Source: Candidatus Gottesmanbacteria bacterium
GTDB lineage: Bacteria; Patescibacteriota; Microgenomatia; 2-02-FULL-39-11
DNA length: 64,000 nucleotides
Reading direction: 5' to 3'
Assembly (NCBI GenBank): GCA_016195685.1
Contig: JACPZE010000020.1
Coordinates: 21,725 to 85,724 of the forward strand
Under the pieces are notes generated by a model. It was not told the DNA's origin and did not search any database. It worked only from the letters and a program-made list of their open reading frames with translations. Positions 27,398-52,314 of this stretch are shown here, in pieces. The position numbers and the translations under genes were made by a program. The stretch's first letter is position 1; every line of letters starts with the position of its first letter.

Positions 27398-28600
27398 ATG
27401 AATATAGCCTTTATCTCCTATTGGTCCTGCCCATTGACTCGTCTGGGTGTGCTTTCTTCTGGTGGAATGAATGTCTATGTTTTAAATCTTGCCAATAACT
27501 TAGGTACGCTGGGCCATACTGTAGATATTTATACCCATTCGCATCATGAAAACGATGAAAAAATACTGCAAATACACAAAAATGTAAGAATAATTCACTT
27601 TTCCGTTCACACAATAGATCATTACCAAGGTGTAGAATCATTTGCGAATAAAATGCTTGATTTTATGGGAAAAAATTCTTTGCAATATGATCTTTTGCAC
27701 AGTCACTATTTCTACTCCAGTTTGGTAGGACAAATTATAAAAAAAAGTTTGCACATTCCCCTTTTTACTACATTTCACGCATTAGGAATAACGAAAGAAC
27801 TTTATGGCGGGATAAGCGATAAGTTAAGAATCCAAAGTGAAAAGAATATTGTCAACTTCAGTGACGGCATCATTTCTTCTGTGGAATTGGAAAAAAAGGA
27901 ACTCGTCGATAAGTATAAGGCAGATGCCCAAAAAATTTTCGTGGTTGCCCCAGGAGTAAATCATCATGTATTTAAAAAAATTGACAGAAAAAAAGCCAGA
28001 ATGAAAATAGGTATAACAAGTGACGAAAAAATTATTCTTTTTGTAGGAAGGATCGATCCGATCAAGGGAATATCTATCCTTATAAATGCAGTATCAAAAC
28101 TTTCTAAGAAATTCACAGATTTTAAAGATAATTTCAAAGTTCTTTTAATAGGCGGAGACATAGAAAGTAGAACATTTTGGAGAAATCCTGAAGTTATAAA
28201 AATTCAGACTCTCATTGAGCGCTTAGATCTTGCTTGTTGTATAAAGTTTATAGGGAATAGGCCCCATAATGTATTACCATATTATTATAGTGCAAGTGAT
28301 ATAGTAATCATGCCATCCCGCTATGAATCATTTGGGTTGGTTGTATTAGAGGCAATGGCAAGCGGGACCGCGGTTATTGCATCAAAAGTTGGAGGTCTAT
28401 CTTACCTTATAAAAGATAAGGTAAGCGGCCGATTTTTCCGAAGCGGTGATGTAGAAAATCTAGGTGAGGTCATTTGGGAACTGCTCAATGATGATAAACA
28501 AAGAGACAACTTAGGTAAGAAAGCAATAATAGAAAGTCAAAAATATTGCTGGGATTTGCAGGCTGAAAAAATTATTGGATTCTATAAAAAATATTTATGA
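27398..28600 (+). CDS. GT4 glycosyltransferase
   Basis: YESFGLVVLEAMASGTAVIASKVGG, the GT4 signature. Confidence 0.8.
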   Translation: MNIAFISYWSCPLTRLGVLSSGGMNVYVLNLANNLGTLGHTVDIYTHSHHENDEKILQIHKNVRIIHFSVHTIDHYQGVESFANKMLDFMGKNSLQYDLLHSHYFYSSLVGQIIKKSLHIPLFTTFHALGITKELYGGISDKLRIQSEKNIVNFSDGIISSVELEKKELVDKYKADAQKIFVVAPGVNHHVFKKIDRKKARMKIGITSDEKIILFVGRIDPIKGISILINAVSKLSKKFTDFKDNFKVLLIGGDIESRTFWRNPEVIKIQTLIERLDLACCIKFIGNRPHNVLPYYYSASDIVIMPSRYESFGLVVLEAMASGTAVIASKVGGLSYLIKDKVSGRFFRSGDVENLGEVIWELLNDDKQRDNLGKKAIIESQKYCWDLQAEKIIGFYKKYL

Positions 28601-29169
28601 AAAAGACAGTGATCTATTTTCTTCGTCATGGTGAAGTAGAGAATCCCAAAAAAATTATTTATGGAAGACTCCCAGGATTTAATCTGTCTGAAAACGGGAT
28701 AAAAAGGATAAAAGAAGTAGCACAAGAATTGAAAAGTCAAAAAATCGATTATTTATATGCCAGTCCCATGCGAAGAACAAGACAAACAGCAGAAATACTA
28801 AGTCAAGTATTCAGAATAAAAAAGAGGATTAGTCGATATCTTATTGAATCGAAACTTATACATGCAGGATTACCCTTGGATATTTTTAAAAAAGAAATAC
28901 AACCAAAACTTTATGAAGAAAAATATTTAAAACTCGGTCAGGAAAGTCCAGAGTCACAGGCCGATAGGATGTGGCGATTTGTTCAAGTGATGAAAAGTAA
29001 ACATATCGGAAAGACCATACTTGCGGTTTCTCACGGCGATCCGATAGTCATTCTGAAAGCAAAGATTTTGGGAAAGCCTTTCAATTGGCAATTCAAGTTG
29101 GAGAATTATCTTAAACCCGGATATTATCTAATTTTATCCTGCGAAGGAAATACATACAGAATTAAATAA
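28597..29169 (+). CDS. histidine phosphatase (phosphoglycerate mutase family)
   Basis: RHG motif (FLRHGEVENP) and a second His in AVSHGD. Confidence 0.7.
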   Translation: MKKTVIYFLRHGEVENPKKIIYGRLPGFNLSENGIKRIKEVAQELKSQKIDYLYASPMRRTRQTAEILSQVFRIKKRISRYLIESKLIHAGLPLDIFKKEIQPKLYEEKYLKLGQESPESQADRMWRFVQVMKSKHIGKTILAVSHGDPIVILKAKILGKPFNWQFKLENYLKPGYYLILSCEGNTYRIK

Positions 29170-29174
29170 TTTTT

Positions 29175-29813
29175 ATGATGAATAATAAAAAATTCAAATT
29201 CCTTTTCACCAGCTTGGTATTTGGTTGCATTTTTATTTATTTAAGTTTTTTGGTGAATAAAGATATATTCCATAATCTGGATTATGATACCTTGGTTTAT
29301 CTTCAAAAGTCATTTAATCGAATAGTTGATATGCCGTTTTCGATACTCACGCTTTTAGGATCATCGGAATTTATTTTGCCAACAGTCACTTTAATATTTA
29401 CAATATTATTTTTGCGGAAAAAGCACTTGTTTAGCGGGTTATTTCTTATATTTTTGATTTATATTTTTGAGTTGACCGGAAAATTATTCATATATCATCC
29501 CAAACCTCCCATGATATTTAATCGCTATGTCCTTCATATTTTCCTTCCCAGCAGTTTCATAGTCGAAACCAATTTTTCCTATCCTTCCGGTCATATGGCC
29601 AGGATAACTTTTTTGACAGTAATTATTCTGTATTTTATTTTTAAATTTACTAAAAATAAGTTACATAAGAACTTTTTTATATTTCTATCAGTATTTTTTA
29701 TAACGGTTATGTTTATAAGCAGAATATACCTGGCAGAACATTGGTTTACAGATGTTCTGGGAGGATTACTTTTGGGTGTAAGTTTGGGAACTCTGGCTTT
29801 AAGCCTTTGGTAA
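29175..29813 (+). CDS. PAP2-family membrane phosphatase (possible polyprenyl-pyrophosphate phosphatase)
   Basis: PAP2 motifs PSGH (SYPSGHMARI) and SRx5Hx3D (SRIYLAEHWFTDVLGG) on a multi-TM scaffold. Confidence 0.7.
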   Translation: MMNNKKFKFLFTSLVFGCIFIYLSFLVNKDIFHNLDYDTLVYLQKSFNRIVDMPFSILTLLGSSEFILPTVTLIFTILFLRKKHLFSGLFLIFLIYIFELTGKLFIYHPKPPMIFNRYVLHIFLPSSFIVETNFSYPSGHMARITFLTVIILYFIFKFTKNKLHKNFFIFLSVFFITVMFISRIYLAEHWFTDVLGGLLLGVSLGTLALSLW

Positions 29814-29815: not shown

Positions 29816-30532
29816 ATGACTGAATATAATCAGATAGTTAAATCAATAACTGAATTTATCAATCAATATACAGAAATGAATATCAAAGCTGTCGTGATGC
29901 ATTGTCCTTATTGGATAAACAGATTAAAAGATGGAAAAGTTACTTTGAGAGGATTTGCTAATGGTAAAGGGGAAGCAAATGAAATCAGAGAAGAATTGGA
30001 AAGGCGATTGGATTATTTACCCCCCAATCTTAAATTTAATCTTACTGATGAGGCAATTAGAAAATTTGCCAGACGTGAGAAAATTGGTATAGATTGTTCG
30101 GGGTTTGTGTATCGGGTGATAGATGAATTGTTGCAACTTGGCTATGGTGATACAAAATATAAAAAGCTAGATGAAATTTTTACCGGTGGGATCAATAAAA
30201 CAAATGTAGAGAGATTAACAAGCGATGAATATTCTAGACGGGTTTCTGACATGAGAAATTATAAGATCGGAGATGTTATCAGGTTATGGGGAGGCAAACA
30301 TGCAGCAATAATAATAAACAATAATAAAAAAGAGATTTTATATGCTCATTCTTCGTGGCTAAGTACAAAAATACAAGGTGTACATACTTCCAGAATTCAA
30401 ATTATAGACGAAGGCAAAACTTTAGAAGAGCAAAGATGGATGGAAGAAACGAGAAAAGGAGAAAATTTCGGACAGAAATATTTTAATTCAGAAAAAGGTG
30501 ATGGAGTTTTCCGGCTGAAAATATTTAATTAA
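29816..30532 (+). CDS. NlpC/P60-like cysteine peptidase/amidase candidate
   Basis: GIDCSGFVYRV is a Cys catalytic motif, with downstream His positions (GKHAAII, YAHSS). The start is reassigned to the ATG at 29816, 2 bp after the PAP2 stop. The ORF-track start lies inside the upstream gene. Confidence 0.45.
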   Translation: MTEYNQIVKSITEFINQYTEMNIKAVVMHCPYWINRLKDGKVTLRGFANGKGEANEIREELERRLDYLPPNLKFNLTDEAIRKFARREKIGIDCSGFVYRVIDELLQLGYGDTKYKKLDEIFTGGINKTNVERLTSDEYSRRVSDMRNYKIGDVIRLWGGKHAAIIINNNKKEILYAHSSWLSTKIQGVHTSRIQIIDEGKTLEEQRWMEETRKGENFGQKYFNSEKGDGVFRLKIFN

Positions 30533-30533
30533 T

Positions 30534-31931
30534 ATGCACGAACTCATCTCAAAATTACAGGGAAAAAATATCCATATTGTAGGAGTCAGTGGTGCAGAAG
30601 GAAGTAATATTCTCAGATTCCTCGCCAAGCATAAAATTTCGGGTATTACCGCCCACGATTTTTCAAATAAAATTAGTTTGGAAAAAAACTTCAGACTTTG
30701 GCATAAAGGACTAATGCCACAGGAAAGAAATAAACAATACCAACAATTTAAGAATTATTTATCAAATGTAAAGTTAAATTTGGATAAATCATATCTATCT
30801 GACATCCAACAGGCAGATATAGTTTTCGTGCCGCAATCTTGGAGGCTATATAAAATGGAAAATTTGCCTCTTTTTAGTGTAGTCGGTAAAATTCCATTTT
30901 ATTCTTTAACTCGGCTCTATCTTGACTTTGCGCCTGCCAAAATTATTGCAGTGACAGGAACAGTAGGAAAGGGCAGTACAGCGAATATTATTTTCCAATT
31001 ACTAAATGCCAACGGTAAAAAAGCTTACTTTGCCGGGAATGATACTTGGATGGCTCAATTGGGAGATAAATTAGATGAAATGGCTAAAGATGATTTTCTT
31101 GTTTTGGAAATATCACATAGGCAGCTATTGGACGGATTCACCAAAGCTCCATATATGGTAGTGGTAACGAATCTTTATCCAAATCATCTGGATGAGGTGA
31201 GTTGGGAAGAATACATCAATTTAAAATTATCTTTGGTCAGAACACAGGAACAAAGAGGAATATCCATATTGAACTATGATATTCCCCAGTTACGTTTGGA
31301 TGGTAAATTAAAATCGAAAATATTTTATTTCAGCGTAAAAACACCGGAAAAGAATACAAAAAGTATTCAGAATATATATGATAAATTGTTGAATAATAAA
31401 AGTGATCAATATTTATCAAATTTGTTGGCAGGATTAACAGTTTTAGAAATATTAGGACAAACTTTAATCAAAGTACTTCCTCAATTACTAAAGATTAAAC
31501 CTTTACCGGCAAGAATAGATTTAATCGGAAAAATAAATGGAATTAATTTTTATGATGATATAAAAAGTACTACTCCGTGGGCTACTGTCGCTGCAGTAAA
31601 CAAACTTGGGGAAAATACAATCCTAATTTGTGGAGGAAAAACCAAAGGAATAGATTATAACGATTTTGCAAATAATTTGTTGAAGAGAGTAAAGTTTACA
31701 ATAATGATAAAAAGTGAATTAAGTGAGACTTTGGTTAAGTTAATGCCGGAAGGCAGTTTCATCCTCGAGAATGATTTAGCGAAAGCAATAAGTATTGCTT
31801 ATAAAAAAGCTATAGTTTCCGATAATATTTTACTTTCTCCAGGTGCTGGATTTTTTTATAGTGATTTTATCAAAGGAAAGAAGTCTTACCGGAAACTTAT
31901 TACTTCTCTTCTTCCAAAGGAGCAAGTTTGA
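30534..31931 (+). CDS. murD: Mur ligase family protein, MurD-like
   Basis: N-terminal Rossmann-like GxGxxG region (IHIVGVSGAEGSN). Mur ligase P-loop (IIAVTGTVGKGSTANI). Length of 465 aa and a MurD-like C-terminus. No other division/cell-wall (dcw) cluster genes are adjacent. Confidence 0.7.
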   Translation: MHELISKLQGKNIHIVGVSGAEGSNILRFLAKHKISGITAHDFSNKISLEKNFRLWHKGLMPQERNKQYQQFKNYLSNVKLNLDKSYLSDIQQADIVFVPQSWRLYKMENLPLFSVVGKIPFYSLTRLYLDFAPAKIIAVTGTVGKGSTANIIFQLLNANGKKAYFAGNDTWMAQLGDKLDEMAKDDFLVLEISHRQLLDGFTKAPYMVVVTNLYPNHLDEVSWEEYINLKLSLVRTQEQRGISILNYDIPQLRLDGKLKSKIFYFSVKTPEKNTKSIQNIYDKLLNNKSDQYLSNLLAGLTVLEILGQTLIKVLPQLLKIKPLPARIDLIGKINGINFYDDIKSTTPWATVAAVNKLGENTILICGGKTKGIDYNDFANNLLKRVKFTIMIKSELSETLVKLMPEGSFILENDLAKAISIAYKKAIVSDNILLSPGAGFFYSDFIKGKKSYRKLITSLLPKEQV

Positions 31932-32085
31932 GTGGATTGACTGATATAATTTCACATTCTACTCCGCAGGATGGACATTCTACTATTTTCCCGATATTTA
32001 TTCCTGTAGATAATTTTAGTGGAGTATCACATTCCGGGCAAACTGGAGCAAGCGTTGGGTTATTTGGACTGTCATCAGTAGTCAT
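31900..32085 (-). CDS. LysW-like zinc-ribbon protein (amino-group carrier protein-like), antisense and wedged between + strand genes
   Basis: 61-aa ORF. VCPECDTPLKL...GKIVECPSCGVECEIISVNPLKLAPLEEEK matches the LysW/ArgW layout (CPECG..L.L...GE.V.C..CG.ELEV....PL.L.P..EE) with two CxxC pairs. It lacks the canonical terminal EDWGE. Its 3' end overlaps the MurD-like gene's 3' end by 32 bp. Confidence 0.45.
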   Translation of the reverse strand: MTTDDSPNNPTLAPVCPECDTPLKLSTGINIGKIVECPSCGVECEIISVNPLKLAPLEEEK

Positions 32086-32115
32086 ATATAATTATCTAAT
32101 TAAACCATATTTGTT

Positions 32116-32976
32116 ATGATCAGACAAGATTTAATCACATTGGGTGAAGGTAATACTCCGCTTGTTGAAGTAAACGGTATCTATTTCAAATGTGAATTCA
32201 AAAATCCAACCGGATCGCATAAAGATAGGGCATTTGCCCTACAAGTATCTAATATTAAAGAAAAAGGAATAAAAAAAGCAGTAATATCATCTTCCGGCAA
32301 TGCGGCGATTTCTGCAGCTAATTATTGCAAACTGGCAGGTATTGCACTTACTGTTTTCGTTTCACCCCATATCAACAAAAAAAAGCTTCAGATATTAGAA
32401 AATTTAGATTGCGTAGTTATCAAATCTAATAGGCCTGTGAGCGATTCAATAAAATATGCCCAAAAAGGAGAAATATATAATCTGAGACAATCAACTGATA
32501 TAAATGCTGTTATCGGATATGAGTCGATCGCTAGTGAAATCATAGATAGCAAAATATCGCCGGACGCAATTTTTTTACCTGTAAGTAGTGGGACTACTCT
32601 CATAGGTATTGCTAATGGCTTTAAGAATTCAAAATACAAAATACCCGTCCACGCAGTCCAAACAGATCTTGTGCATCCGATTACTGGAATTTTTGATAAA
32701 GATTTTCCTAAGTCAGATGAAAAGAGTATGGCAGATGCAATTGTCGCCAGATACACCCCAAGGGAGGCTGAAGTGGTAAATATGATCAAGCAAACTGGCG
32801 GGTGGGGATGGGTGATCACTAATGAGGAGATGGAAAAGGGTAGAGTATGGTTATACTCTCACGACTTGGATTGTTCTTATGAAGGAGCAGCAACTCTTGC
32901 AGCTTTGTGGAAAGCAACAAAATACGGATACATATATGCCCATCCAGTGTGTATATTAACAGGAAAGTTTTACTAA
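32116..32976 (+). CDS. fold-type II PLP-dependent enzyme (threonine synthase/cysteine synthase/racemase-like), short form
   Basis: N-terminal GEGNTPL and the PLP-lysine motif NPTGSHKDR. Glycine-rich SSGN and SSGTT loops. At 286 aa it is shorter than threonine synthase. Confidence 0.7.
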   Translation: MIRQDLITLGEGNTPLVEVNGIYFKCEFKNPTGSHKDRAFALQVSNIKEKGIKKAVISSSGNAAISAANYCKLAGIALTVFVSPHINKKKLQILENLDCVVIKSNRPVSDSIKYAQKGEIYNLRQSTDINAVIGYESIASEIIDSKISPDAIFLPVSSGTTLIGIANGFKNSKYKIPVHAVQTDLVHPITGIFDKDFPKSDEKSMADAIVARYTPREAEVVNMIKQTGGWGWVITNEEMEKGRVWLYSHDLDCSYEGAATLAALWKATKYGYIYAHPVCILTGKFY

Positions 32977-32980
32977 AAAT

Positions 32981-34297
32981 ATGACTGACTGGAAGAAATA
33001 TTTTTCTGACGATAATATTTTTTTTGTGACTCCGGATGTAAAAAGAGGTCTTGGGTTCACCGGAATCCTGTCCCAATATCATATTATTTGTACAGACCTT
33101 GATCCGATAATCCCTGCGTTAAGAATTCAGGGGGCAAAGATATTTTGTCTGGAAGAGGAAGGAAGTGTTGATGTCAGTGAGATGCGTAATTCCGGTAAAT
33201 TACTGGAAAACTTACGGGTTTTGGAATATATAAAAAATAATTCCAAGGGTGCTCCGAAAGTTATGTATTTTAAACCATCGCTGAAGATCGATTCACTAGT
33301 AAAGCTTCATGGATTTACTCCGATCGGTAACAATACCGCATTAAACGAATTATTTGAAGATAAAGTCAGTTTCGCCCAAATTGCTAAGAATATTTTTCCT
33401 GATTATTTATTGCCTAGTATTTCGGGAATTTTAGGAGAACTTAATTATCCAGATTTATATGGAAAGTTGAGTTCTCCGCTAGTATTGCAGTTTGGGCATG
33501 GATGGGCCGGGAAAACTACGTTTTTTATAAACGGTGAAGAAGAATTTGAAATATTATCGCAAAAATTTCCCTATACAAAAGTAAAAATAAGCAAATTCAT
33601 AGAGGGATTTACCGTATTAAATAATTGTTGTTTATATCAAGGCCAAATATATATAAGTAGTCCAGCAGTACAGATAGATGGAATAGAAGAACTTGGAAGT
33701 AAACCAGGAGCGACCTGCGGCAGACAATGGCCGGCAAAATTTATTACAAATGCTCAAGTATCCCAAATCGAAGTCATTTCACGAAATTTAGGGAAACTGA
33801 TGAACGAAAAAGGCTTCAGAGGATTTTTGGGAATTGATTTTCTGATAGAAGAGAAGACCGGAAAAATTTATTTATCTGAAGTTAACGCCAGAATGACCGC
33901 ATCATCAGCTTTTTATACACTACTAGAAATAGGTTCAGGTAGTATTCCTCTTTTGGCCTATCATATGGCTGAATTTCTGGGAAAATCTATAAAGGATAAA
34001 TTTGAAGAGAATAATAATTTAGTTGGTTCTCAAGTGATTATGCGAAGCGGAAGAAGTTTAACAAATGTCGATAGTCATTTATTCGGAGTATTTAAATATG
34101 AAAATAATCGGACAAAGTTTATAAGAGACGAATATTATCCTAATAAACTCAGGGACGGTGAATATATTTTTATGGGAAAAAGATTAAAAGAAGGAAATTC
34201 TACAGATGAATTCGCCAGAATTGAGACAAAATACGAGATTTTAGAAAAGCCTAGGAAATTTAATAAACAATTCAAAAGGATAATCAATAATTATTAA
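32981..34297 (+). CDS. ATP-grasp superfamily carboxylate-amine ligase
   Basis: C-terminal ATP-grasp core (GFRGFLGIDFLIEEKTGKIYLSEVNARMTAS). 438 aa with a ~150-aa N-terminal extension. Confidence 0.65.
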   Translation: MTDWKKYFSDDNIFFVTPDVKRGLGFTGILSQYHIICTDLDPIIPALRIQGAKIFCLEEEGSVDVSEMRNSGKLLENLRVLEYIKNNSKGAPKVMYFKPSLKIDSLVKLHGFTPIGNNTALNELFEDKVSFAQIAKNIFPDYLLPSISGILGELNYPDLYGKLSSPLVLQFGHGWAGKTTFFINGEEEFEILSQKFPYTKVKISKFIEGFTVLNNCCLYQGQIYISSPAVQIDGIEELGSKPGATCGRQWPAKFITNAQVSQIEVISRNLGKLMNEKGFRGFLGIDFLIEEKTGKIYLSEVNARMTASSAFYTLLEIGSGSIPLLAYHMAEFLGKSIKDKFEENNNLVGSQVIMRSGRSLTNVDSHLFGVFKYENNRTKFIRDEYYPNKLRDGEYIFMGKRLKEGNSTDEFARIETKYEILEKPRKFNKQFKRIINNY

Positions 34298-42880: not shown

Positions 42881-44302
42881 ATGACCATGACAAATATTCT
42901 GCCCAAAAAGTTTTTCCTTGCTATATTTTTCCTCATTTCCTCATTTTTCCTATTTGTTTTTCCATCTTTTGCCCAGGAATACAAACCGGATGAGGTGGTA
43001 GTAAAAATGCGTCCTTCCAATTCTTTGGAAGAACGACTGAAATTTCACCATGAAATCGGTGCCCAACAGACTTTTCAGATAGAAAATTTAGGTGTAGATA
43101 TTTTGCATTTTGAAGGTATTCCAATAGAGCGAATTTTGGAAAGACTCAAATCTGACCCCCGGATTTTGTACGCTGAACCAAACTACAAAGCTACAGCCTT
43201 TGACATGACTAATGACCCAGCCCTTCTACAAAATCTGCAGTGGGGTTTACTTAAAGTACAAGCTGCTGCCAATACTGATAGCGCTTGGACTATCAGTAGA
43301 GGTCGATCATCAATTCAAGTGGCTGTTTTAGATACTGGAATCGATTCAAATCACCAAGATCTACAGGGCAAAGTTAGTGCATCAAAAAATTGTACTGATA
43401 GCAATACCGTCGATGATCGTTATGGTCATGGTACTCACGTATCAGGCATTATTTCTGCCGATACTAACAACGGAATCGGAGTAGCTGGTGTCGGATATAA
43501 TATTTCTCTTATCAATGCAAAGGGATTAGGAGATGATGGATCGGGGTATTATTCATGGCTTGCAGATTGTCTAGTATGGGCTACGGATAATGGAGCAAAG
43601 GTAATCAATATGAGTTTGGGTGGATCATCCGACTCGCAATTATTATCAGATGCTATAAATTATGCATGGAATAAAGGAGTGGTTCTGGTAGCTGCCGCAG
43701 GAAATTCCGGGAGTAACTCTCCTTCTTATCCTGGTTATTATTCCAATGTAATCTCGGTAGCAGCAACAGATCAAAATGACGCAAAGGCCTCTTTTTCAAA
43801 CTACGGGAATTGGGTAAAAGTGGCCGCTCCTGGAGTAGGTATTTATTCGACTTTGCCAGATACTCCCAATGCTTTCAAACAAACAACTTACGGATATGGT
43901 TCTGGTACTTCTATGGCGACACCTTTCGTATCTGGACTTGCTGGTCTTATTTTTAGTTTAGGTAATTTTGACAATACGACTGTGGTAAATTATATCCAGA
44001 ATAATGCCGACAAAATTCCCGGTACGGGGTCAAATTGGGTATATGGGAGGATCAATGCTTACCAAAGCTTGTTAGCTGCCAGAGGAACAGGGAACGTTAG
44101 ACCGAGTATATCACCTACACCTACTAATACACCAACTCCTATTCCTACTTCTACCCCCACACCGAAACCGACTTCAACTCCTACACCTACTCCCACTCCA
44201 ACGACTGCATCTATACCTGTTTCTCCCAAAGCGCCTACTCCTCCTCCAGTACCACCATGGTTAGCGAGACTTTGCAGCAGGTTGCCTATCCTTTGTCACT
44301 AA
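42881..44302 (+). CDS. secreted subtilisin-like serine protease (S8) with Pro/Thr-rich C-terminal tail
   Basis: Signal peptide. Catalytic triad motifs DTGID, HGTHVSG and GTSMATP. The C-terminal PT repeats end in WLARLCSRLPILCH. Confidence 0.85.
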   Translation: MTMTNILPKKFFLAIFFLISSFFLFVFPSFAQEYKPDEVVVKMRPSNSLEERLKFHHEIGAQQTFQIENLGVDILHFEGIPIERILERLKSDPRILYAEPNYKATAFDMTNDPALLQNLQWGLLKVQAAANTDSAWTISRGRSSIQVAVLDTGIDSNHQDLQGKVSASKNCTDSNTVDDRYGHGTHVSGIISADTNNGIGVAGVGYNISLINAKGLGDDGSGYYSWLADCLVWATDNGAKVINMSLGGSSDSQLLSDAINYAWNKGVVLVAAAGNSGSNSPSYPGYYSNVISVAATDQNDAKASFSNYGNWVKVAAPGVGIYSTLPDTPNAFKQTTYGYGSGTSMATPFVSGLAGLIFSLGNFDNTTVVNYIQNNADKIPGTGSNWVYGRINAYQSLLAARGTGNVRPSISPTPTNTPTPIPTSTPTPKPTSTPTPTPTPTTASIPVSPKAPTPPPVPPWLARLCSRLPILCH

Positions 44303-45802
44303 ATTTGGGGGATTTTTTATTCTGACAAATATAGAAGCTCGTGTGTCGCTGTAGACTATTTTCCATTTACCCATCTTTACTAATTCCATGAGTCTACGGT
44401 GGATAGGTTTGGCTGTAGTCATGAATACTACATTATAATCAGACTGGTCGATATCTTTTCTGTTTTGTTCAAATGGATAATAGTCTATAAAAGCACTATA
44501 ACCGGAACTATCTCTCCAAAGATGCATCCGTCCGTCAATACTGGGTTTTATTTCGGGGTAATTGGCGATGAGCCATCCCCCCCAATTGTAAAAAGTCATA
44601 AGTTTACCGGTGTATTTATAATTTTTCAGAAATTCTGCAGCTTGTGGTGAACATCCGATGAAATCACAGTATCTATTCCAATCTACGGCAGTTACATTTT
44701 CCGTAGGGGCTTTGGCAAATATAATATACCCGTAAAAAAACACCAAAACCAAGACACATATAGTAGCAGATATTTCAGAAAGCTTTGGTTTTATAGAAGA
44801 TATGAAAACTCTGACAACAGGGATAGATATCAAAAGCAAAACCCAGGTATATCTTCTTACTTGTATCGAGAGGATAAGAAGCAAAATTACAGGAATAATG
44901 TAATGGATATTCTTGAAGAAATTTTTCCGAAGGATAAATATCCCCAGGCTTAATATCACTAAAGCTTCCCAAAACATAAGGTTCCACCAAAGTGCGGAAA
45001 ATCTGTCAAAAGGCAGCCATTCGATGATAAATTGTTGTAGAGGATTGCCGAAATGTCGCAATGATTCTATATATATGTGTAGTCCGAAAGGGTTTATTAG
45101 TGTTGAGGTTAAGGATGAGAAAAATATCAAGCTCAAATATTTTCCTTCTCCCAAGACTTTCTTTCTTTCATCGCCGATTGAAGTTAAATAATATTTTTGC
45201 AATATATAAAATACCAACATTAAAAAGAGTATGCCCAATCCCAAGATAAACTGTCCGTGGAAATTAGACCACAGCAAAAAAAGAGGGAGAAAACACCATG
45301 CATATTTTTTCTTGCCCGCAATATATCTACTCAAAATATAATAAAGCATGGCAAAAGCAAGTAAAGTCAACTGTTGTCCACGGAACGAGACTTCTATAAA
45401 AGGTGATTCAAGGTAAAGAAGAATGGGGAATAATATTGTTTTTTCCCAAAATGTCAGGTGGGCTGCTTTAGAAAAAAAATAAAAAGTAAAAGTCATCACT
45501 AATGCACCTAATATAGATATTCCAAGAAAACTGAAGTTATGGAAAACAAGATATGTGAGAAGGTCAGTCGCCCATGAACTATTTATCCAATGGAAGCCAG
45601 CCATCATGGTAGAGAAAATATTCTCGCGGAGAACTGCGTGATGTTGGAAAAAATACTCCCCGTACTTGATATGCCAGCCCATATCTGAATCGTAAGGAAC
45701 ATACAGAGAATATGTGAAAACGATAACCAAAGGAAAAAACCGGATAAAAATATCTTTAAGAGTCTTCATTTTAATGGTGATGATTATACCATAAGGCGAC
45801 AA
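44261..45802 (-). CDS. polytopic membrane protein (GT-C-like candidate)
   Basis: At least 12 TM helices with a C-terminal soluble domain. Convergent with the S8 gene, overlapping by 42 bp. Confidence 0.45.
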   Translation of the reverse strand: MSPYGIIITIKMKTLKDIFIRFFPLVIVFTYSLYVPYDSDMGWHIKYGEYFFQHHAVLRENIFSTMMAGFHWINSSWATDLLTYLVFHNFSFLGISILGALVMTFTFYFFSKAAHLTFWEKTILFPILLYLESPFIEVSFRGQQLTLLAFAMLYYILSRYIAGKKKYAWCFLPLFLLWSNFHGQFILGLGILFLMLVFYILQKYYLTSIGDERKKVLGEGKYLSLIFFSSLTSTLINPFGLHIYIESLRHFGNPLQQFIIEWLPFDRFSALWWNLMFWEALVILSLGIFILRKNFFKNIHYIIPVILLLILSIQVRRYTWVLLLISIPVVRVFISSIKPKLSEISATICVLVLVFFYGYIIFAKAPTENVTAVDWNRYCDFIGCSPQAAEFLKNYKYTGKLMTFYNWGGWLIANYPEIKPSIDGRMHLWRDSSGYSAFIDYYPFEQNRKDIDQSDYNVVFMTTAKPIHRRLMELVKMGKWKIVYSDTRASIFVRIKNPPNLVTKDRQPAAKSR

Positions 45803-46144
45803 TACAATCTAAAGTTATTTTCGTGAAAATGCCACTTGACAAGCGTGAAAAAAATGTTTTACATTGGATATAGAGTTTGCCTGCCGCAAACGGAAGCAAT
45901 CCTGAGTTTTTACGAAGGGTTGCTTATTATTTTTGATAAAGTTTAGCACCTGCCCGGTGTAAATTTCTAGTACAAATTTAGTTAGATTACTGCCATTATG
46001 TATTGTTGTCTGCCCTCTGCCCAAGGACACACTCGAACCTCGATCCGCGAGTAACGGAACGGGGTGAGAGTGTTTTTTTGGACAGAAATTATTCTACAAG
46101 TCCCGGCGTAAAGTCGGGATGAGGAAGGGAGGTGAAATGAAATT

Positions 46145-46729
46145 ATGATAAAGAAAATTTTAACAGCATCTTTAGGATTGGGTATGGTTTTGGCTACAGT
46201 TGTTCCTGCTTTTGCAGCAATTAACATTTTCAATACCGGTCCAGGATCAAACGTGGACGCCAGATCTGACCGAGTGAAAAATCTTATATTGAATCTGACT
46301 AATAACTATACGCTCAATCACAAGTTGACTGTCAATCAGACAACCGGTAATAATAGCGCAAGCTTTAACACTGGTTCTGGACTTGCAGCTGCCGGCAATC
46401 AGACTGGAAATCATACCTCAGCGGTTGAGGCAAATTCAGTCAATTTGGATATTAACGCGACTGGTTCGTGCAATTGTGATAATAATATAACCATCAACAC
46501 CACAGGGCCGGGTTCCAATACGACTGCATCTATCAACTCAACAACAAATGTGACCCTGAATTTAACCAACAATGGTACAGTGAACAATACAGTCAAGTCT
46601 ATCGTGAATACCGGTGGTAATAGTGCCAATAATAACACTGGTAATGGTACTGCTCTCGGTGGTGATTCAAATGTGTGGACTTTAGTGACAACCAAACTTA
46701 ATTCAGTCTGGCTTAAATTAGTTATGTAA
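46145..46729 (+). CDS. secreted N-x-S/T sequon-rich repeat protein, short paralog
   Basis: Signal peptide, then two copies of the TGPGSN...NSA.NNTG.G repeat also seen in the 52443 and 53772 proteins. AGGGAGGTGA ribosome-binding site. Confidence 0.6.
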   Translation: MIKKILTASLGLGMVLATVVPAFAAINIFNTGPGSNVDARSDRVKNLILNLTNNYTLNHKLTVNQTTGNNSASFNTGSGLAAAGNQTGNHTSAVEANSVNLDINATGSCNCDNNITINTTGPGSNTTASINSTTNVTLNLTNNGTVNNTVKSIVNTGGNSANNNTGNGTALGGDSNVWTLVTTKLNSVWLKLVM

Positions 46730-46829
46730 AGTCAGTTTTTGTATTTACATCAGGGCCCCGCCTCCGGCGGGGCTCTTTTGTGGGAATCATCTTGCATCCT
46801 GATATGTTTTGATATAGAATTCGCGAAAC

Positions 46830-48398
46830 ATGATACAGAAAATTAAAAAATGGTTTTCTACGGAAAATCTTATTATTGCTGCAGTGATATTTGTAGCAAT
46901 TTTCTTCACCAAATTCCCCACTCTATATCATTGGTTAAATACGCCGAAAGGTTATTGGTATCCTAAAAATACTTCCTGGTTTGATGCATGGGATATAAAC
47001 GTATATGTTTCTTATATAAGGTACGGCCAGAAAGCTGGAGTATTTTTGGAAAATACGTATACCACGGTTCCTCATCCCAAAGAATTTATTTATCAATACT
47101 ATACTTTCCTTGGAGTATTCAACAGGTTTTTACATTTAGATCCTTTTGTACTTTTCCATCTTGCTTCCATTGCGACTTCTATAGTTCTTATCTTGGTTAC
47201 ATATTATGTCATTAAGATATTTATTGAAGACAATACTCTTCGGATAGCTGCTTTTATTATCTCTATATTAGGCGGGGGTTTTGGATGGATATCATATCTA
47301 CAGGGAGCAGACATATGGAATGCGGGATTTACTACGGTCAATGCATTTGAGCGCGGACATGACGCTCTCGGCACGGTGTTTTTACTCTTATCGATGGTAA
47401 ATATATATCTTTTTACGGCTACGAGGTCTACTAAATATCTTCTTTACGGTATTTTCTCTAGTCTAGGCAGTATTGCCATCAATCCTACATTTATAATACT
47501 TTACCTTCCTGTCTCTTTGGCAGCCACGTTTTCGGCCGAAAATAATAAACAAAGAATGAAAAGCCTAATATACCCAATTTCATTAGCGGTGATGTTTTCC
47601 ATTTATTATCTTTTATTTCTGGCCCATCTAAGTACAAATCCAGGTTTTGCAAATATTGGCCAAACAAATCTAGGAATAATCAATTCATTTAGCTTAATTT
47701 CTGGTTTTGGTTTTTTATCTATATTTTTGATGTGGACACTTATGTCCAATTATAAAAATAATAATAAGATTATTTTTGTAAATTTTTTTTTCTTAAGCCA
47801 ATTATTTTTTGTATATTTTCCGGTTGATTTCAATCTTTATTTTATAAAGGGATTATATTTATGGGGAGTAATTTTAGCTTCATATGGTTTAAATACTCTT
47901 ATAACAAATAAAAAAATTCTGAATGTAACTTCCACGGTTCTGGTACTTACAGCTATCCTGACGAGAGTGTATATATTCAATAGTTTGATGAATGCGGAAA
48001 CTCAAAATCCCTTTTTCTATTTGACTAAACCTGAAGGTGAAGCCATATCGTATATGGCAAAGTTGCCATCCGATAAGGCGGTACTTAGTCTATATAGAGT
48101 AGGTAACTATATCCCGGCCCATACTGACAATATAGTTTACTATGGTCATAAACACCAAACACCAAATGGAGAGACTACACTTAGGATGTCTCAACTTTTT
48201 TATACTTCTTTAAATGAGGAACAGCAAAGGAAATTTTTGTCGGATAATCATATAGATTATATTTATTACGGTATAGAAGAAGCTCAACTACGGAAAAATA
48301 ACAAATTGGAAATATCAACCCCTTTTCCATATTTTCCTATAGTATTTAGTAATGACTCGGTTATCGTCTTTGGAACAGGAAAAAGTGAGATTAAATAA
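46830..48398 (+). CDS. polytopic membrane protein, tandem paralog A (GT-C-like candidate)
   Basis: N-terminal KFPTLYHWLNTPKGYWYP...WFDAWD, then many TM helices. The C-terminal soluble domain matches the neighbouring paralog. Confidence 0.5.
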   Translation: MIQKIKKWFSTENLIIAAVIFVAIFFTKFPTLYHWLNTPKGYWYPKNTSWFDAWDINVYVSYIRYGQKAGVFLENTYTTVPHPKEFIYQYYTFLGVFNRFLHLDPFVLFHLASIATSIVLILVTYYVIKIFIEDNTLRIAAFIISILGGGFGWISYLQGADIWNAGFTTVNAFERGHDALGTVFLLLSMVNIYLFTATRSTKYLLYGIFSSLGSIAINPTFIILYLPVSLAATFSAENNKQRMKSLIYPISLAVMFSIYYLLFLAHLSTNPGFANIGQTNLGIINSFSLISGFGFLSIFLMWTLMSNYKNNNKIIFVNFFFLSQLFFVYFPVDFNLYFIKGLYLWGVILASYGLNTLITNKKILNVTSTVLVLTAILTRVYIFNSLMNAETQNPFFYLTKPEGEAISYMAKLPSDKAVLSLYRVGNYIPAHTDNIVYYGHKHQTPNGETTLRMSQLFYTSLNEEQQRKFLSDNHIDYIYYGIEEAQLRKNNKLEISTPFPYFPIVFSNDSVIVFGTGKSEIK

Positions 48399-48429
48399 TC
48401 CGCCAAGGCGAGATTTACAATTTAAAACT

Positions 48430-50004
48430 ATGCTAGAAAAACTGAAACGAATATTTACAAAAGAAACATTTATTGTAGCAATAGTCATATTTACTGCTAT
48501 CTTTTTGGCTAAATTTCCGACCTTATACCACTGGTTAAATACGCCAACAGGATATTGGTATCCCAAACAATCTTCTTGGTATGATGCCTGGGACAGCAAT
48601 TTCCAGGTATCGTATATACGTTTTGGACAAAACCATGGAATGATGCTGGAGAATACTTATACTACGATGCCTCATCAAGGGGTGTTTATATACCAGTATT
48701 ACACTTTACTGGGAGTCCTAAACAGATTTCTAAAACTGGATCCGTTCATCCTGTACCATCTGGCAAGTATAGTGACGAGTATAGTACTTATATTCGTTTG
48801 CTATAAATTAGTGCGTACTTTCGTACAGGATAAAATTAGCCGAATCTCAGCTTTCATCATGATAGTTCTGGGAGGAGGAGTGGGATGGATTCTCCCAAGT
48901 TTTCAATCAGCGGATAAAAATCTGGCCGGATTTACGATGGTGAATGCTTTTGAGCGGGGCCATGACGGACTTAGTACTATATTTCTCATTCTGACTTTAC
49001 TTTTCCAATATAAATTTCTGGAAAGCAATAGAAAGAGATTTATATTTTACTCCATTCTGTGCGGCTTTCTCAGTATCACTTTGCATCCGCCGTTGGCTGC
49101 CTTGTATGTTCTTTCGGGGCTACTTTTTACTATATGGGAGTTCCAAAAGAAAAAATCTATAAAGAGCTTGTTTATCCCGGTAGGGGTTGTAATACTATTT
49201 GGAATATATTTTCTGACAGTACTGGAGAAACTACTCGTAAATCCGGCATTTTCTTCTCAAGTGACGCAAAATTTATACAGTGTGGATAGTATAAATTTGC
49301 TATTGGGATTTGGAATCATTTCCTTTTTCACTCTTTATAGTCTTTTAGCAAATTTCCAAGATGATTTAAAAGTATCTGCGCTCCGAATTTTTTTCTTTGT
49401 ACAGATATTCCTTCTCTTGTCTCCACTCGGTACCCATCTTTATTTTGCAAAGGGACTTCATGTCTGGGTGGTGTTATTATCTGTGTTTGCGATAGAAAAA
49501 CTGATTCGTTCAAAAAGATGGAAATTTTTGGTTCTTACAATAGTAGTAGTATTTTCCCTTATAAACAGATTCTATATTTTTAACGACCTGATGCAGGATA
49601 AAACAAACAATCCCTTTGTTTATTTAAGTAGCTCGGAAGGTGAGGCGATCAATTTCATATCTACATTGCCGAAGGATCAGGGTGTAATTAGTCTTTATAA
49701 AATAGGAAATTATATCCCCGCCCATTCTGATCTGAGGGTTTACTATGGTCATAAATATCAAACACCAAATAGCGCTGAAACATTGCGTAAGGCACAGACA
49801 TTCTATACGTCGATGGAGGAAGTAGATCAAAGAAAATTTTTAGCTGACAATCATATAGATTATATTTACTACGGTTGGGAAGAAGCGAATCTTCGGAAAG
49901 ATAGCAAACTTGATCCCGTAAATCCCTTCTCTTATTTTCCTGTATTATTTAGTAACGATGCGGCTATCGTCTACTCAACATCGCAATCTGCCCAGCTCAA
50001 ATAA
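48430..50004 (+). CDS. polytopic membrane protein, tandem paralog B (GT-C-like candidate)
   Basis: Same architecture and long blocks of identity with 46830-48398 (KFPTLYHWLNTPTGYWYP...). The start is reassigned to the in-frame ATG at 48430, downstream of the paralog A stop. Confidence 0.5.
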   Translation: MLEKLKRIFTKETFIVAIVIFTAIFLAKFPTLYHWLNTPTGYWYPKQSSWYDAWDSNFQVSYIRFGQNHGMMLENTYTTMPHQGVFIYQYYTLLGVLNRFLKLDPFILYHLASIVTSIVLIFVCYKLVRTFVQDKISRISAFIMIVLGGGVGWILPSFQSADKNLAGFTMVNAFERGHDGLSTIFLILTLLFQYKFLESNRKRFIFYSILCGFLSITLHPPLAALYVLSGLLFTIWEFQKKKSIKSLFIPVGVVILFGIYFLTVLEKLLVNPAFSSQVTQNLYSVDSINLLLGFGIISFFTLYSLLANFQDDLKVSALRIFFFVQIFLLLSPLGTHLYFAKGLHVWVVLLSVFAIEKLIRSKRWKFLVLTIVVVFSLINRFYIFNDLMQDKTNNPFVYLSSSEGEAINFISTLPKDQGVISLYKIGNYIPAHSDLRVYYGHKYQTPNSAETLRKAQTFYTSMEEVDQRKFLADNHIDYIYYGWEEANLRKDSKLDPVNPFSYFPVLFSNDAAIVYSTSQSAQLK

Positions 50005-50006
50005 AT

Positions 50007-51167
50007 ATGCATTGGTCGAGTTCTCTTAAACAAGCTATCATCACTGCCGCGATTTTTACTTTCTGGATGCATTTCGTGGTTTATATGATAGGCAGTATTC
50101 TTTTGGGATTGGTTAAACCTCTTCCTTATTATCTAAATAATATGAAATTGGTAGAGCTTATTCCGCAAGCAAAAAACACAGGTTGGTATACGATGGTTCA
50201 CCCTTTGCAGAGATTTGATGGGCTTTGGTATAAGGAGATAGCACTACAACATTATTTTAAAAATCCCAGGAGTACCGCATTTTTTCCTCTATATCCCTTT
50301 ACTATAGAACTAATTATGATGGCAACTGGTTTCTCATTCGAACAGGCTGCTTTTGTTTTTAATTCAATTCTTCTTTTTATCTTTTTTATCCTTATATACT
50401 TTCTGGCAGCACAAAAATTCCATCAGGCAAACCCATGGCATTCTGTAGTCATCTATGCCTTTTTCCCTACAAGCTTTTTCTTACTAGCCCCTTATGCTGA
50501 TATTTTAATGCTAGATCTGATACTTTTTTCTCTTTTTGCAGCTTACGGGAAAAAATATTTTTTATCCAGTCTGGTAGCTGTACTGGTTGTAATGACAAAG
50601 CCGTTTGGGATATTTTTCATTATTCCCCTTATATACCTTTTTTATAAATCCGCTAAATCCCCCAAATTAAAGCTTATGCGACTATCTTATCTCCTCCTTT
50701 TACCGTGCGCATTTATGATTGTGGTTTTTTACCAGGATTTGATGTCAGGGACAATTGCATCTACCTTCAAATCCCAAAGTTATTGGGGAATGAAATTCAC
50801 AACTCCTTGGGGGATTGTGAAGGATTTCCTTCACATATTGAAAACATCATATAGTCTACCGACACATTTGAACTTTATTTTAGCAGTCGCTGGGTTATAT
50901 CTTCTTTTTATATCAAAAGGAGTGATCCCAAACGAGCTATGGATATATTCCTTCGTTCTCTATATGGTATTCGTATTTACATCTACAAAGTATGGCTCGA
51001 TTCCCTTTTTTAGTTTTTCAAGATATGCACTTATGCTTTTTCCCTTGTTTATTTATACAGCCAGCATAAAAGTACAAAATATAATCAAGTCTTTCTATAT
51101 AGGTATAAGTTTATTATTATTAGTAATCTTTTTCATATTTTATACTGTAGGATTTTTTGTTGCGTGA
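50007..51167 (+). CDS. polytopic membrane protein (unknown, glycosyltransferase-like topology)
   Basis: About 10 TM helices with no soluble domain. Contiguous with the paralog pair. Confidence 0.45.
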   Translation: MHWSSSLKQAIITAAIFTFWMHFVVYMIGSILLGLVKPLPYYLNNMKLVELIPQAKNTGWYTMVHPLQRFDGLWYKEIALQHYFKNPRSTAFFPLYPFTIELIMMATGFSFEQAAFVFNSILLFIFFILIYFLAAQKFHQANPWHSVVIYAFFPTSFFLLAPYADILMLDLILFSLFAAYGKKYFLSSLVAVLVVMTKPFGIFFIIPLIYLFYKSAKSPKLKLMRLSYLLLLPCAFMIVVFYQDLMSGTIASTFKSQSYWGMKFTTPWGIVKDFLHILKTSYSLPTHLNFILAVAGLYLLFISKGVIPNELWIYSFVLYMVFVFTSTKYGSIPFFSFSRYALMLFPLFIYTASIKVQNIIKSFYIGISLLLLVIFFIFYTVGFFVA

Positions 51168-51235
51168 TGACAATCTATTCTTTATTTATTATATCAATAA
51201 ATATCAAATAGTATCAAAAGATGGAATTTCGCATC

Positions 51236-51264
51236 TTGACAAGACGCGCATGATTAGATAATAT
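51236..51264 (+). promoter_or_regulatory. sigma70-type promoter
   Basis: TTGACA-N17-TAATAT, upstream of the 51304 CDS. A hairpin CCCAAAGC-N5-GCTTTGGG (51276-51296) sits between the promoter and the start. Confidence 0.45.
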
Positions 51265-51303
51265 CACCTAGCTTGCCCAAAGCTGTCCGCTTTGGGATTT
51301 ATT

Positions 51304-51927
51304 ATGGCTACAACAAAAGACGTAAGTAGACTAGATCCAGAAGTAGTTATACCAAAAATCAAAAACTTCAAACAGAAGCTGGGTGATTATATTGCTCAGA
51401 AAAAGAGATTTGTCATTTTACTAGTAATTATAGGGGTAATCCTTCTTTTCTTCGGATATAGACAGGTCCTGAAAAATTCCCGATCAAATTCAACTGCTAA
51501 AACAGTCACGGTCCAGATGGATAAGAGTTTCACTTTTGCTGCTTTGAACAATCAAGGTAAACCTACAAGTGCCAAAATCAAACTCAGGATTGTTGATGCT
51601 CAAAAAACAGACCAGGTTCTCGTGAAGGATCAGACTTACAAAGCCACAAATAACAAATTGTTTCTTATCTTCAATTTGGAATTGAAAAATGATGAAACTA
51701 CCCCACAAAATATAATGCCTGGGGATTTGGTCCGCCTAGCAGTAGCAGGAAATGAAGACACCAGGTTCGCACCGGATCTGCATAACAGTCTGGTAGGGAT
51801 AGCAGCAATATCTACCAAAAATGATCGAGTGGGATTTGTCATTCCACAAGATGCGAATAAATTTAAATTATATATAGGAGAGTTAGAGGGGAAGAAAGAA
51901 GAGATAAAGGTGGATTTTCCCTCTTGA
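51304..51927 (+). CDS. membrane-anchored hypothetical protein
   Basis: One TM helix followed by a beta-rich extracytoplasmic domain. The start is set at the first ATG; the ORF track used an upstream TTG. Confidence 0.4.
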   Translation: MATTKDVSRLDPEVVIPKIKNFKQKLGDYIAQKKRFVILLVIIGVILLFFGYRQVLKNSRSNSTAKTVTVQMDKSFTFAALNNQGKPTSAKIKLRIVDAQKTDQVLVKDQTYKATNNKLFLIFNLELKNDETTPQNIMPGDLVRLAVAGNEDTRFAPDLHNSLVGIAAISTKNDRVGFVIPQDANKFKLYIGELEGKKEEIKVDFPS

Positions 51928-52032
51928 CAAGCTAAGCCAATATTTTTTATATTGCAAGTGTTAAATAGGAAAGTATAAAAAAAGTTAATCTGCTGCCCCA
52001 GAAATAAATTCCTGTCCCCTGTCTATAAATAT

Positions 52033-52242
52033 TTGATCACATCCTGCTCAACAGCTCACTGTAAAATGGTTGATCATTCAAGCATAAAGATTACTAGAGA
52101 TTTGGTAGTAGAAATCAAGCAAGCACTCAAAAACGTAAGAGGTTGGGGTAGTGTGGAGATTTTTGTGCAAGACCATAAAGTGACACAGATAACAGAAAGA
52201 AATATAAAGAAAACAAATTTGAGTATAAAAGATTTAGATTAA
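52033..52242 (+). CDS. small DUF2292/YezD-like protein
   Basis: GWGSVEIFVQDHKVTQITE resembles the YezD family core. The start is uncertain; the alternative is the Met at 52066. Confidence 0.4.
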   Translation: MITSCSTAHCKMVDHSSIKITRDLVVEIKQALKNVRGWGSVEIFVQDHKVTQITERNIKKTNLSIKDLD

Positions 52243-52263
52243 TCAGATTACCGACCGCCAACG

Positions 52264-52314
52264 GAGGTAAGGAATCCTTGATTTATAAGAATCGGGAACC
52301 TTACCTCTTTTTTA
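52264..52314 (+). terminator. intrinsic terminator
   Basis: GAGGTAAGG-N26-CCTTACCTC followed by TTTTTTAT. Immediately 5' of it lies the 14-mer ACCGCCAACGGAGG, which recurs at 57512. Confidence 0.6.

Follow-up and report, generated by a model that had tools for sequence, protein, structure and literature searches.

What joint task, if any, is served by the five adjacent genes at positions 29816-34297 of a 64,000-nucleotide stretch of Candidatus Gottesmanbacteria DNA (GenBank assembly GCA_016195685.1, contig JACPZE010000020.1, positions 21,725 to 85,724 of the forward strand; this whole stretch is called the window below)? The genes encode an NlpC/P60-like protein (P60L), a MurD-type Mur ligase, a small LysW-like zinc ribbon protein, a fold-type II pyridoxal 5'-phosphate (PLP) enzyme and an ATP-grasp ligase. 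An initial annotation, made from the DNA letters alone, had reported this set of genes with a PAP2 phosphatase upstream, and all of these open reading frames (ORFs) are present where it placed them. The LysW-like ORF is confirmed as well, but its strand had to be corrected to minus. We refer to the NlpC/P60-like, LysW-like, PLP and ATP-grasp genes as the module. The answer that we favour, with a probability of about 0.42, is that the module makes or hands over the residue that MurD adds at position 2 of the peptidoglycan stem peptide, D-Glu, and that it does so on a carrier protein.

There are 28 module loci in a scan of GTDB, in which each species is represented by one genome and 10 kb is visible on each side. 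The order P60-like, LysW-like (minus strand), PLP enzyme and ATP-grasp is kept in 22 of the 22 loci that span the whole module, and the remaining six end at a contig edge and have the same order over the genes they retain. A metagenome scan with a profile of the MurD clade gave 80 loci that were inspected, and the pattern is repeated in most of them. A conserved gene order is shared by more than 100 loci. In addition, three kinds of gene fusion join the components: P60L with MurD (P0163, P0198 and P0221), ATP-grasp with a canonical NlpC/P60 domain (P0279, P0309, P0319, P0354, P0357 and L096) and PLP enzyme with ATP-grasp (P0347, P0381 and L107). Because the clustering is conserved in GTDB loci, in metagenome loci and in gene fusions, it is meaningful and far beyond chance, and it defines a five-component system built around the housekeeping MurD in Microgenomates and related Patescibacteria. 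Conservation of the operon across related genomes had been named as a check in the initial annotation, and this synteny proves to be very strongly kept.

The module is found in three main arrangements. Type A, represented by 19 GTDB loci from Gottesmanbacteria and Roizmanbacteria, has the order GT4-HisPhos-PAP2-P60L-MurD-LysW(-)-PLP-ATPg-[Nramp]-prfB-ftsEX-M23, where GT4 is a family 4 glycosyltransferase, HisPhos a histidine phosphatase and ATPg the ATP-grasp gene. Type B, with nine GTDB loci from Shapirobacteria, Woesebacteria and others, reads murE-murC-murA-ddl-murF-mraY-P60L-LysW(-)-PLP-ATPg-ftsW-murG-ftsA-ftsZ, so that the module occupies the canonical murD slot, which mraY and ftsW flank; family models assign the ligases nearby to MurC, MurE and MurF. 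In the third arrangement, mraY-...-P60-MurD-LysW(-)-PLP-ATPg-ftsW-murG(-murC-murB), module and MurD share that slot. It is found in L041, L035, L036 and many metagenome loci, and is the simplest candidate for the ancestral state. Two further loci (L039 and L040) carry the core module in other contexts. The Gottesmanbacteria version, MurD included, lies outside the division and cell wall (dcw) gene cluster, and no dcw genes were found within the rest of the 64-kb window. Thus, the description of the genes as lying away from any dcw cluster is correct for the window and for this lineage, but it is not a property of the system, since other lineages carry the module within that cluster.

Two variations on these arrangements were seen among related loci. 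In L087, L090 (1690-5881) and L091 the order is MurD, a gap of 650 nucleotides with no LysW-like ORF in it, PLP enzyme, ftsW and murG, and the MurD of this reduced variant has Asn and Ala at the positions of D317 and K319 (YYNNLASTTPES). One Patescibacteria lineage has a gene for a 525-amino acid Amidohydro_3 protein that lies after mraY and ahead of the module's NlpC/P60 gene (L035 4308-5885 and L036 4840-6417; also L095, L097, L104 and L110). Among NCBIfam models it matches PRK09061 best (183 bits; cutoff 340). We take this model to be one that was once labelled a D-glutamate deacylase or deacylase-like protein; if so, the gene would be another pointer to D-Glu chemistry.

The Mur ligase (30534-31931, plus strand, 465 amino acids) is predicted to be a divergent orthologue of the housekeeping MurD rather than merely a MurD-like protein. 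It matches Mur_ligase_M at 61 bits, and its top NCBIfam model is murD (TIGR01087), although the score of 161.8 bits is below the cutoff of 211.95 and the N-terminal domain is unaligned. Full-length identity with the MurDs of L035 (36%) and L036 is 35-37%, and the L035 protein clears the murD cutoff with 266.8 bits. MurD orthologues lie between mraY and ftsW in L041, L035, L036, L082, L097 and L109, whereas the window MurD itself is without mraY or ftsW neighbours. The assignment is made because murD is the best family, a relative scores above cutoff and relatives sit in the mraY-ftsW slot. A public record with 100% identity to the window ligase, from a metagenome-assembled genome of Candidatus Gottesmanbacteria, is labelled 'hypothetical protein'.

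Residues were mapped by alignment to the MurDs of E. coli, T. maritima and S. agalactiae, aided by conservation within the clade, and are given in E. coli numbering followed by the window position. The P-loop, Mg-binding and catalytic residues are kept (K115=K146, E157=E192, H183=H218 and the carbamylated K198=K231), as are R302=R327, D317=D342, K319=K344, T321=T346 and K348=K371. However, the equivalent of S415, as mapped through a local alignment with a two-residue gap, is Phe440, and the canonical C-terminal loop SPxxAS(F/L/W)D reads SPxxx(F/Y/H/N)F(Y/V) in the module clade. When E. coli MurD binds D-Glu mimetics, one of their carboxylates is held by Lys348 and Thr321 and the other by Ser415 and Phe422 (PMC3527612). 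Eight related MurDs from plain mraY-murD-ftsW-murG-murC loci of the metagenome scan, which carry no module, served as internal controls. Ser is present at the S415 position in none of 61 distinct module-linked MurDs and in six of the eight module-free ones (Fisher p 2e-7, uncorrected for phylogeny). The loop for the gamma-carboxylate of D-Glu thus appears to be remodelled, while the predicted binders of the alpha-carboxylate, T321 and K348, are intact. Two other oddities, an Asn at the D182 position (Asn217 in the window) and a [PS]Q.W motif in the N-terminal domain, were first suspected to be specific to the module. This idea was dropped because both are also found in module-free relatives, and they are therefore traits of the clade.

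The LysW-like ORF (31900-32085, minus strand) encodes a net acidic protein of 61 amino acids, MTTDDSPNNPTLAPVCPECDTPLKLSTGINIGKIVECPSCGVECEIISVNPLKLAPLEEEK, whose C-terminus reads ...PLEEEK. It scores 42.8 bits against Pfam Zn_ribbon_LysW (PF21344; cutoff 27) and 39.3 bits against the LysW equivalog TIGR01206 (cutoff 53.2), with the last six positions of the latter profile unmatched. Canonical LysW ends in Glu (EDWGE), whereas 64 of 67 distinct homologues of the module carrier end in EEK and 66 of 67 end in Lys. This Lys-ending tail persists even in lineages whose module enzymes share only about 30% identity. The ATP-grasp has no RimK match, genes for a kinase, a reductase or an aminotransferase are absent from the window and from all related loci, and the LysX, LysZ, LysY, LysJ and LysK partners of the known pathway are missing. 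NCBI nevertheless labels the small ORF 'lysine biosynthesis protein LysW'. A 63-amino acid ORF on the plus strand (31928-32119) was considered and rejected as a shadow of the LysW-like gene; it is without a family match.

At their 3' ends, murD and the LysW-like gene run into each other on opposite strands over 32 nucleotides (31900-31931), so that one piece of DNA encodes both the MurD tail (...SLLPKEQV) and, antisense to it, the ...PLEEEK tail of the carrier. Such an overlap was noted also in L001, L005, L007, L011, L012, L014, L022 and L024; it measures 17-47 nucleotides in other lineages, and a few are without it. The start of the LysW-like gene lies about 25-30 nucleotides from the divergent start of the PLP gene.

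The PLP enzyme (32116-32976, plus strand, 286 amino acids) matches PALP at 168.5 bits, and its best NCBIfam model is ThrC at 133.8 bits, below the cutoff of 301. The predicted PLP lysine is K36 in GSHKDR, and the substrate loop is S58-S59-S60-G-N; both are conserved in the clade. Its PDB matches are threonine synthase (3e-14) and fold-II aspartate and serine racemases (2e-8 to 6e-7), and SbnA and CysK are weaker-scoring relatives. The phosphate binders of ThrC, which we take to be T88, N154, S155 and R160 in the T. thermophilus enzyme, are changed at T88 (to Ala63) and R160 (to Ala131), and the motif NSVNPxRxEGQKT is absent. Threonine synthase was rejected as the function on account of this lost phosphate site and the sub-cutoff score, and the protein is best described as a probable relative of ThrC with another activity.

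The ATP-grasp ligase (32981-34297, plus strand, 438 amino acids) probably represents an uncharacterised family. Its score against ATP-grasp_3 (22.2 bits) is marginally below the cutoff of 23.2, and the best NCBIfam match, PRK06524 'biotin carboxylase', reaches 98.8 bits against a cutoff of 684. The residues of the Mg/ATP motifs are conserved (K202, D286, E300, N302 and R304). An AlphaFold2 model with a mean predicted local distance difference test (pLDDT) score of 91.9 has the ordinary three-domain architecture of ATP-grasp enzymes, and the supposedly unusual N-terminal extension of about 150 amino acids turns out to be the ordinary N-domain, which lies outside the Pfam coverage. The top Foldseek matches are biotin carboxylase, PurK and BesA, with TM scores of 0.55-0.65 that indicate a generic ATP-grasp only. 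Sequence and profile matches in the PDB, to PGM1 and an 'ATP-grasp peptide ligase', are marginal. There are 718 representatives of the family at E<=1e-30, and homologues are restricted to Microgenomates and the candidate phyla radiation (CPR) of ultra-small bacteria and carry no functional names. A homologue from Peregrinibacteria (L038 6603-8027), which scores about 300 bits against the family profile, lies on its own beside an integrase gene, and carrier, PLP enzyme and MurD are all absent.

Several known families were tried for the ligases and rejected. The ATP-grasp scores 17.4 bits against Ddl (TIGR01205; cutoff 245.65), and genuine, separate ddl genes are present in related dcw clusters. 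It has no RimK match, which argues against a RimK or LysX assignment. For CphA (TIGR02068), the Mur ligase scores 20.6 bits against a cutoff of 850 and the ATP-grasp has no match. The analogies drawn in the initial annotation to cyanophycin synthetase and to VanT/VanC modules are thus not supported. That annotation also reasoned that a housekeeping MurD, a Ddl and a lack of synteny would together reduce the locus to scattered cell-wall genes. Half of this picture holds at most: the ligase is predicted to be a housekeeping MurD, but the ATP-grasp is not a Ddl and the synteny is kept.

P60L (29816-30532, plus strand, 238 amino acids) carries a GIDCSG...H...H signature but scores only 17.4 bits against Pfam NLPC_P60 (PF00877; cutoff 23), and its PDB sequence matches to Spr/MepS have E values of only 0.2-0.4. 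When compared by hhalign, profile to profile, with P60 domains from related modules that do pass the Pfam cutoff, it reaches 95% probability (E 3e-8), with Cys94 of the GIDCSG motif, His162 and His178 in alignment; these three residues are invariant in 28 sequences. The predicted secondary structure (helix 94-107, strands 162-168 and 173-179) fits a papain-like core. An AlphaFold2 model built from four sequences is poor (pLDDT 63), and a Foldseek search with it gave no significant result. These observations bear out the candidate Cys-His peptidase of the initial annotation: P60L probably belongs to the NlpC/P60 superfamily, with Cys94, His162 and His178 as the proposed catalytic residues. No signal peptide was found. 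Because of this, and because its homologues are fused to cytoplasmic enzymes, P60L is predicted to act in the cytoplasm, which is unusual for the family.

The fusions of ligase with amidase, PLP enzyme with ligase and amidase with MurD suggest a cycle of loading, modification and unloading that feeds MurD. Perhaps the ATP-grasp ligase forms an amide between the side-chain carboxyl of L-Glu and the epsilon-amine of the carrier's C-terminal Lys, which would leave the alpha-amino and alpha-carboxyl groups free. The PLP enzyme would then epimerise the tethered Glu at C-alpha. MurD, with its rebuilt gamma-carboxylate pocket in which an aromatic residue replaces Ser, would couple the D-Glu with UDP-MurNAc-L-Ala; the NlpC/P60 peptidase would cleave the gamma-D-glutamyl-Lys bond to free the product and recycle the carrier. 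The last two steps may be swapped. The net result would be a one-way, ATP-driven conversion of L- to D-Glu, with a logic like that of MurD2/MurL and an architecture like that of LysW/LysX/LysK. We infer all of these steps from sequence and gene context.

There are several reasons to prefer a tether through the side chain. PLP chemistry requires a free alpha-amino group, so that the classic N-alpha tethering of LysW would block the PLP step. A tether through the side-chain carboxyl would mask exactly the carboxylate whose binding Ser has been lost from MurD, and the resulting gamma-glutamyl-Lys amide would be the type of bond that NlpC/P60 enzymes cut. Moreover, the MurE encoded in these clusters is canonical (408 bits, above cutoff), and a free gamma-carboxyl must therefore return after the MurD step. 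The two explanations offered in the initial annotation, a carrier-protein ligation system and tailoring of the stem peptide, are joined by this evidence, since a LysW-like carrier is tied to the enzyme for stem position 2. The fuller proposition is that this is a hitherto unrecognised route to D-Glu, in which the amino acid is held by its carboxyl on the terminal Lys of a LysW-type protein, epimerised while tethered and accepted directly by MurD, and which, at the expense of ATP, replaces glutamate racemase across much of the CPR. We regard that proposition as doubtful.

A number of observations weigh against a carrier-borne supply of D-Glu to MurD. We infer, rather than observe, where the residue is attached (the Lys epsilon-amine, the Lys alpha-carboxyl or a Glu gamma-carboxyl), which residue is tethered and what reaction the PLP enzyme performs, and the assignment of Phe440 depends on the gapped local alignment described above. 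NlpC/P60 enzymes normally cut gamma-D-Glu on an alpha-amine, not on an epsilon-amine. The MurDs of the L087, L090 and L091 lineage are likewise without Ser415, though no ATP-grasp or LysW-like gene is visible nearby, and the pocket change may therefore have a cause other than tethering. As the lone Peregrinibacteria relative indicates, membership of the ATP-grasp family extends beyond the module. The nine type B lineages show no MurD in the 10 kb on either side of the module, nor any recognisable remnant of one. Finally, a citation in the text of PMC11974145 credits Saccharimonas, a member of the Saccharibacteria within the CPR, with an active MurI.

Part of this evidence can be accommodated in other ways. 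One unlikely explanation is that the module makes a non-standard stem residue, with the ThrC-like PLP enzyme acting as a beta- or gamma-replacement synthase in the manner of SbnA or CysM. The amine of the carrier Lys, or some group bound to the carrier, would be the nucleophile; once the peptidase had released the product, the ATP-grasp would reload the carrier and MurD would install the residue at position 2. The nearest PLP families are indeed replacement enzymes (ThrC and, more weakly, SbnA and CysK), the CysO-CysM-Mec+ system offers a precedent for a carrier C-terminus that works with a fold-II PLP enzyme and a protease, and the gene-encoded terminal Lys might serve as a pre-loaded substrate. 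The altered side-chain pocket of MurD also speaks for this explanation. Against it stand the intact alpha-carboxylate binders and the need of the canonical MurE for a gamma-carboxyl on residue 2, and the loss of the ThrC phosphate binders makes the usual phospho-substrates unlikely. To our knowledge, no peptidoglycan has a residue other than Glu at position 2, which also counts against this explanation. It is likewise improbable that the PLP enzyme is simply a racemase for the free pool that supplies D-Glu, while the LysW-like protein, the ATP-grasp and the P60 protein act separately nearby. The variant with only MurD and PLP enzyme ahead of ftsW would be explained in this way. One possibility for the other three genes is a reversible modification of the C-terminus of a small protein that regulates MurD or early wall synthesis, comparable to tubulin tyrosination or to glutathionylspermidine synthetase/amidase (GspSA). 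The ATP-grasp-P60 fusion shares the ligase and amidase architecture of GspSA, and the EEK tail resembles tails that are edited by ATP-grasp enzymes, such as those of S6 (by RimK) and tubulin (by tubulin tyrosine ligase). However, the PLP-ATP-grasp fusions and the strict co-occurrence of four genes favour a single pathway, the P60-MurD fusion links the peptidase to the ligase step, and we know of no PLP-dependent fold-II glutamate racemase.

The type B loci raise the question of whether the module might replace MurD where none is nearby, with the ATP-grasp adding residue 2 to UDP-MurNAc-L-Ala. Nine species-level lineages hold MurC, MurE and MurF with the module in the place of MurD. A part for ATP-grasp ligases in making pseudomurein peptides has been proposed, for which the sole support here is the name of NF053643, 'putative pseudomurein biosynthesis ATP-grasp protein', a weak match of the ATP-grasp (21.9 bits, cutoff 500). 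This substitution is very unlikely, since MurD coexists with the full module in most lineages, the window included, and the two are thus not redundant; given the 10 kb visible on each side, MurD may sit elsewhere in the type B genomes. We give almost no credence to the notion of unrelated housekeeping genes, or of a remnant of LysW-type lysine or arginine biosynthesis. The NCBI label and the housekeeping nature of MurD speak for it, but it is already contradicted by the gene order conserved across more than 100 loci and the three kinds of fusion, and the lack of LysX, LysZ, LysY, LysJ and LysK, the EEK tail in place of a terminal Glu and the sub-cutoff TIGR01206 score argue in the same direction.

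If the carrier-borne supply of D-Glu is taken as the working model, several known systems can be compared with it. The likeness to LysW/ArgW of Thermus and Sulfolobus lies in a small acidic zinc ribbon with the same Pfam domain and a flexible acidic tail, an ATP-grasp enzyme, a releasing hydrolase and the logic of loading, modifying and unloading. In contrast to the RimK-type LysX/ArgX and the M20 metallopeptidase LysK, the module has a non-RimK ATP-grasp and an NlpC/P60 Cys peptidase. It lacks the kinase, reductase and aminotransferase of that pathway, its predicted modifier is a PLP enzyme of fold type II, which requires the alpha-amine to be free, and its context is MurD and the dcw cluster rather than lysine or arginine synthesis. 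The MurD2/MurL system of Xanthomonas and Micromonospora is a one-way D-Glu route beside murD that spends ATP and does without MurI (PMC8788868); the proposed system would likewise rely on accessory genes next to murD to set the D-configuration of stem residue 2 in an ATP-dependent manner. However, MurD2 has Glu at D182 and Arg at K348 (PMC8788868), whereas the window MurD has Asn217 and Lys371 and thus lacks the MurD2 signature, and MurL is a single AMP-forming protein with no known domains, whereas the module comprises four proteins including a carrier and a PLP enzyme.

The window ligase shares with canonical MurD the three domains, the P-loop, the Mg and carbamyl-Lys sites, R302, D317, K319, T321 and K348, and its orthologues lie in the mraY-ftsW slot; the ligase differs in its sub-cutoff score, its replaced Ser415 loop and the carrier module alongside. 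The CysO-CysM-Mec+ and HcyS-MetY-HcyD systems also combine the C-terminus of a small carrier with a fold-II PLP enzyme, an activating enzyme and a releasing protease, but CysO and HcyS are ubiquitin-like thiocarboxylates that are activated by adenylation and yield cysteine or homocysteine, whereas the module has a zinc ribbon with a terminal Lys and, presumably, ATP-grasp activation. In GspSA, as in the ATP-grasp-P60 fusions, a single polypeptide contains an ATP-grasp amide synthetase together with a papain-like amidase (CHAP or NlpC/P60); GspSA differs in domain order and substrates, and it has no carrier, PLP enzyme or link to peptidoglycan. In a literature search, no earlier account of a LysW-like carrier with a link to MurD or to CPR wall synthesis came up. 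We file the system as a new form of carrier-protein amino acid processing that is attached to peptidoglycan synthesis.

Tightly packed genes for a GT4 (MshA-like), a histidine phosphatase and a PAP2 phosphatase (27398-29813, plus strand) lie 5' of the module in the window, with the PAP2 gene (29175-29813, plus strand) directly 5' of P60L. This triad precedes P60L in 15 of 19 type A GTDB loci, with overlaps of 4 bp or gaps of 2-5 bp; HisPhos is missing in two of the other four, and two are cut off upstream of the module. It is also upstream in type A metagenome loci and is absent from the arrangements embedded in the dcw cluster, and its membership in the system is uncertain. The GT4 protein scores 275 bits against MshA (cutoff 462), and the PAP2 protein is weakly similar to undecaprenyl-diphosphatase. 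The pairing of glycosyltransferase and phosphatase resembles MshA/MshA2 or glucosyl-phosphoglycerate synthase/phosphatase. On the 3' side, the module is followed by Nramp (minus strand), prfB, ftsE, ftsX and an M23/PcsB-like peptidase gene.

There are a few other features in the window. In a fusion encoded at 5156-7456, a B3/4 domain (PF03483), known from the beta subunit of phenylalanyl-tRNA synthetase, follows a class I lysyl-tRNA synthetase domain (PF01921, 295 bits) at the C-terminal end. Nine consecutive large ORFs of 175-806 amino acids without a Pfam match occupy 44261-56791, and they are followed by a sortase and then by a 791-amino acid Laminin_G_3/LTD surface protein. The region from 58 to 60 kb has a strongly negative GC skew (-0.31) and a raised GC content (0.43). 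No Rfam matches were found in the window, and a scan of it for promoters and terminators gave a signal at chance level.

All components of the module are small soluble proteins, and the hypothesis is therefore directly testable in vitro and by complementation. Peptidoglycan synthesis is considered fully charted as far as its cytoplasmic steps go, and MurD2/MurL is the only known deviation at the D-Glu step. If tethered epimerisation is true, the module would be a new kind of D-Glu pathway, and a second accessory system in many CPR lineages would add a new way to make or deliver this amino acid. It would carry LysW-type chemistry from amino acid biosynthesis into wall assembly, possibly with a shift from amino-group to carboxyl-group tethering, and would assign an NlpC/P60 peptidase a biosynthetic role in the cytoplasm. 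The findings also correct public labels such as 'lysine biosynthesis protein LysW' and 'hypothetical protein' (other records read 'ATP-grasp domain-containing'), and they offer lineage-specific targets or markers for organisms that are beyond culture.

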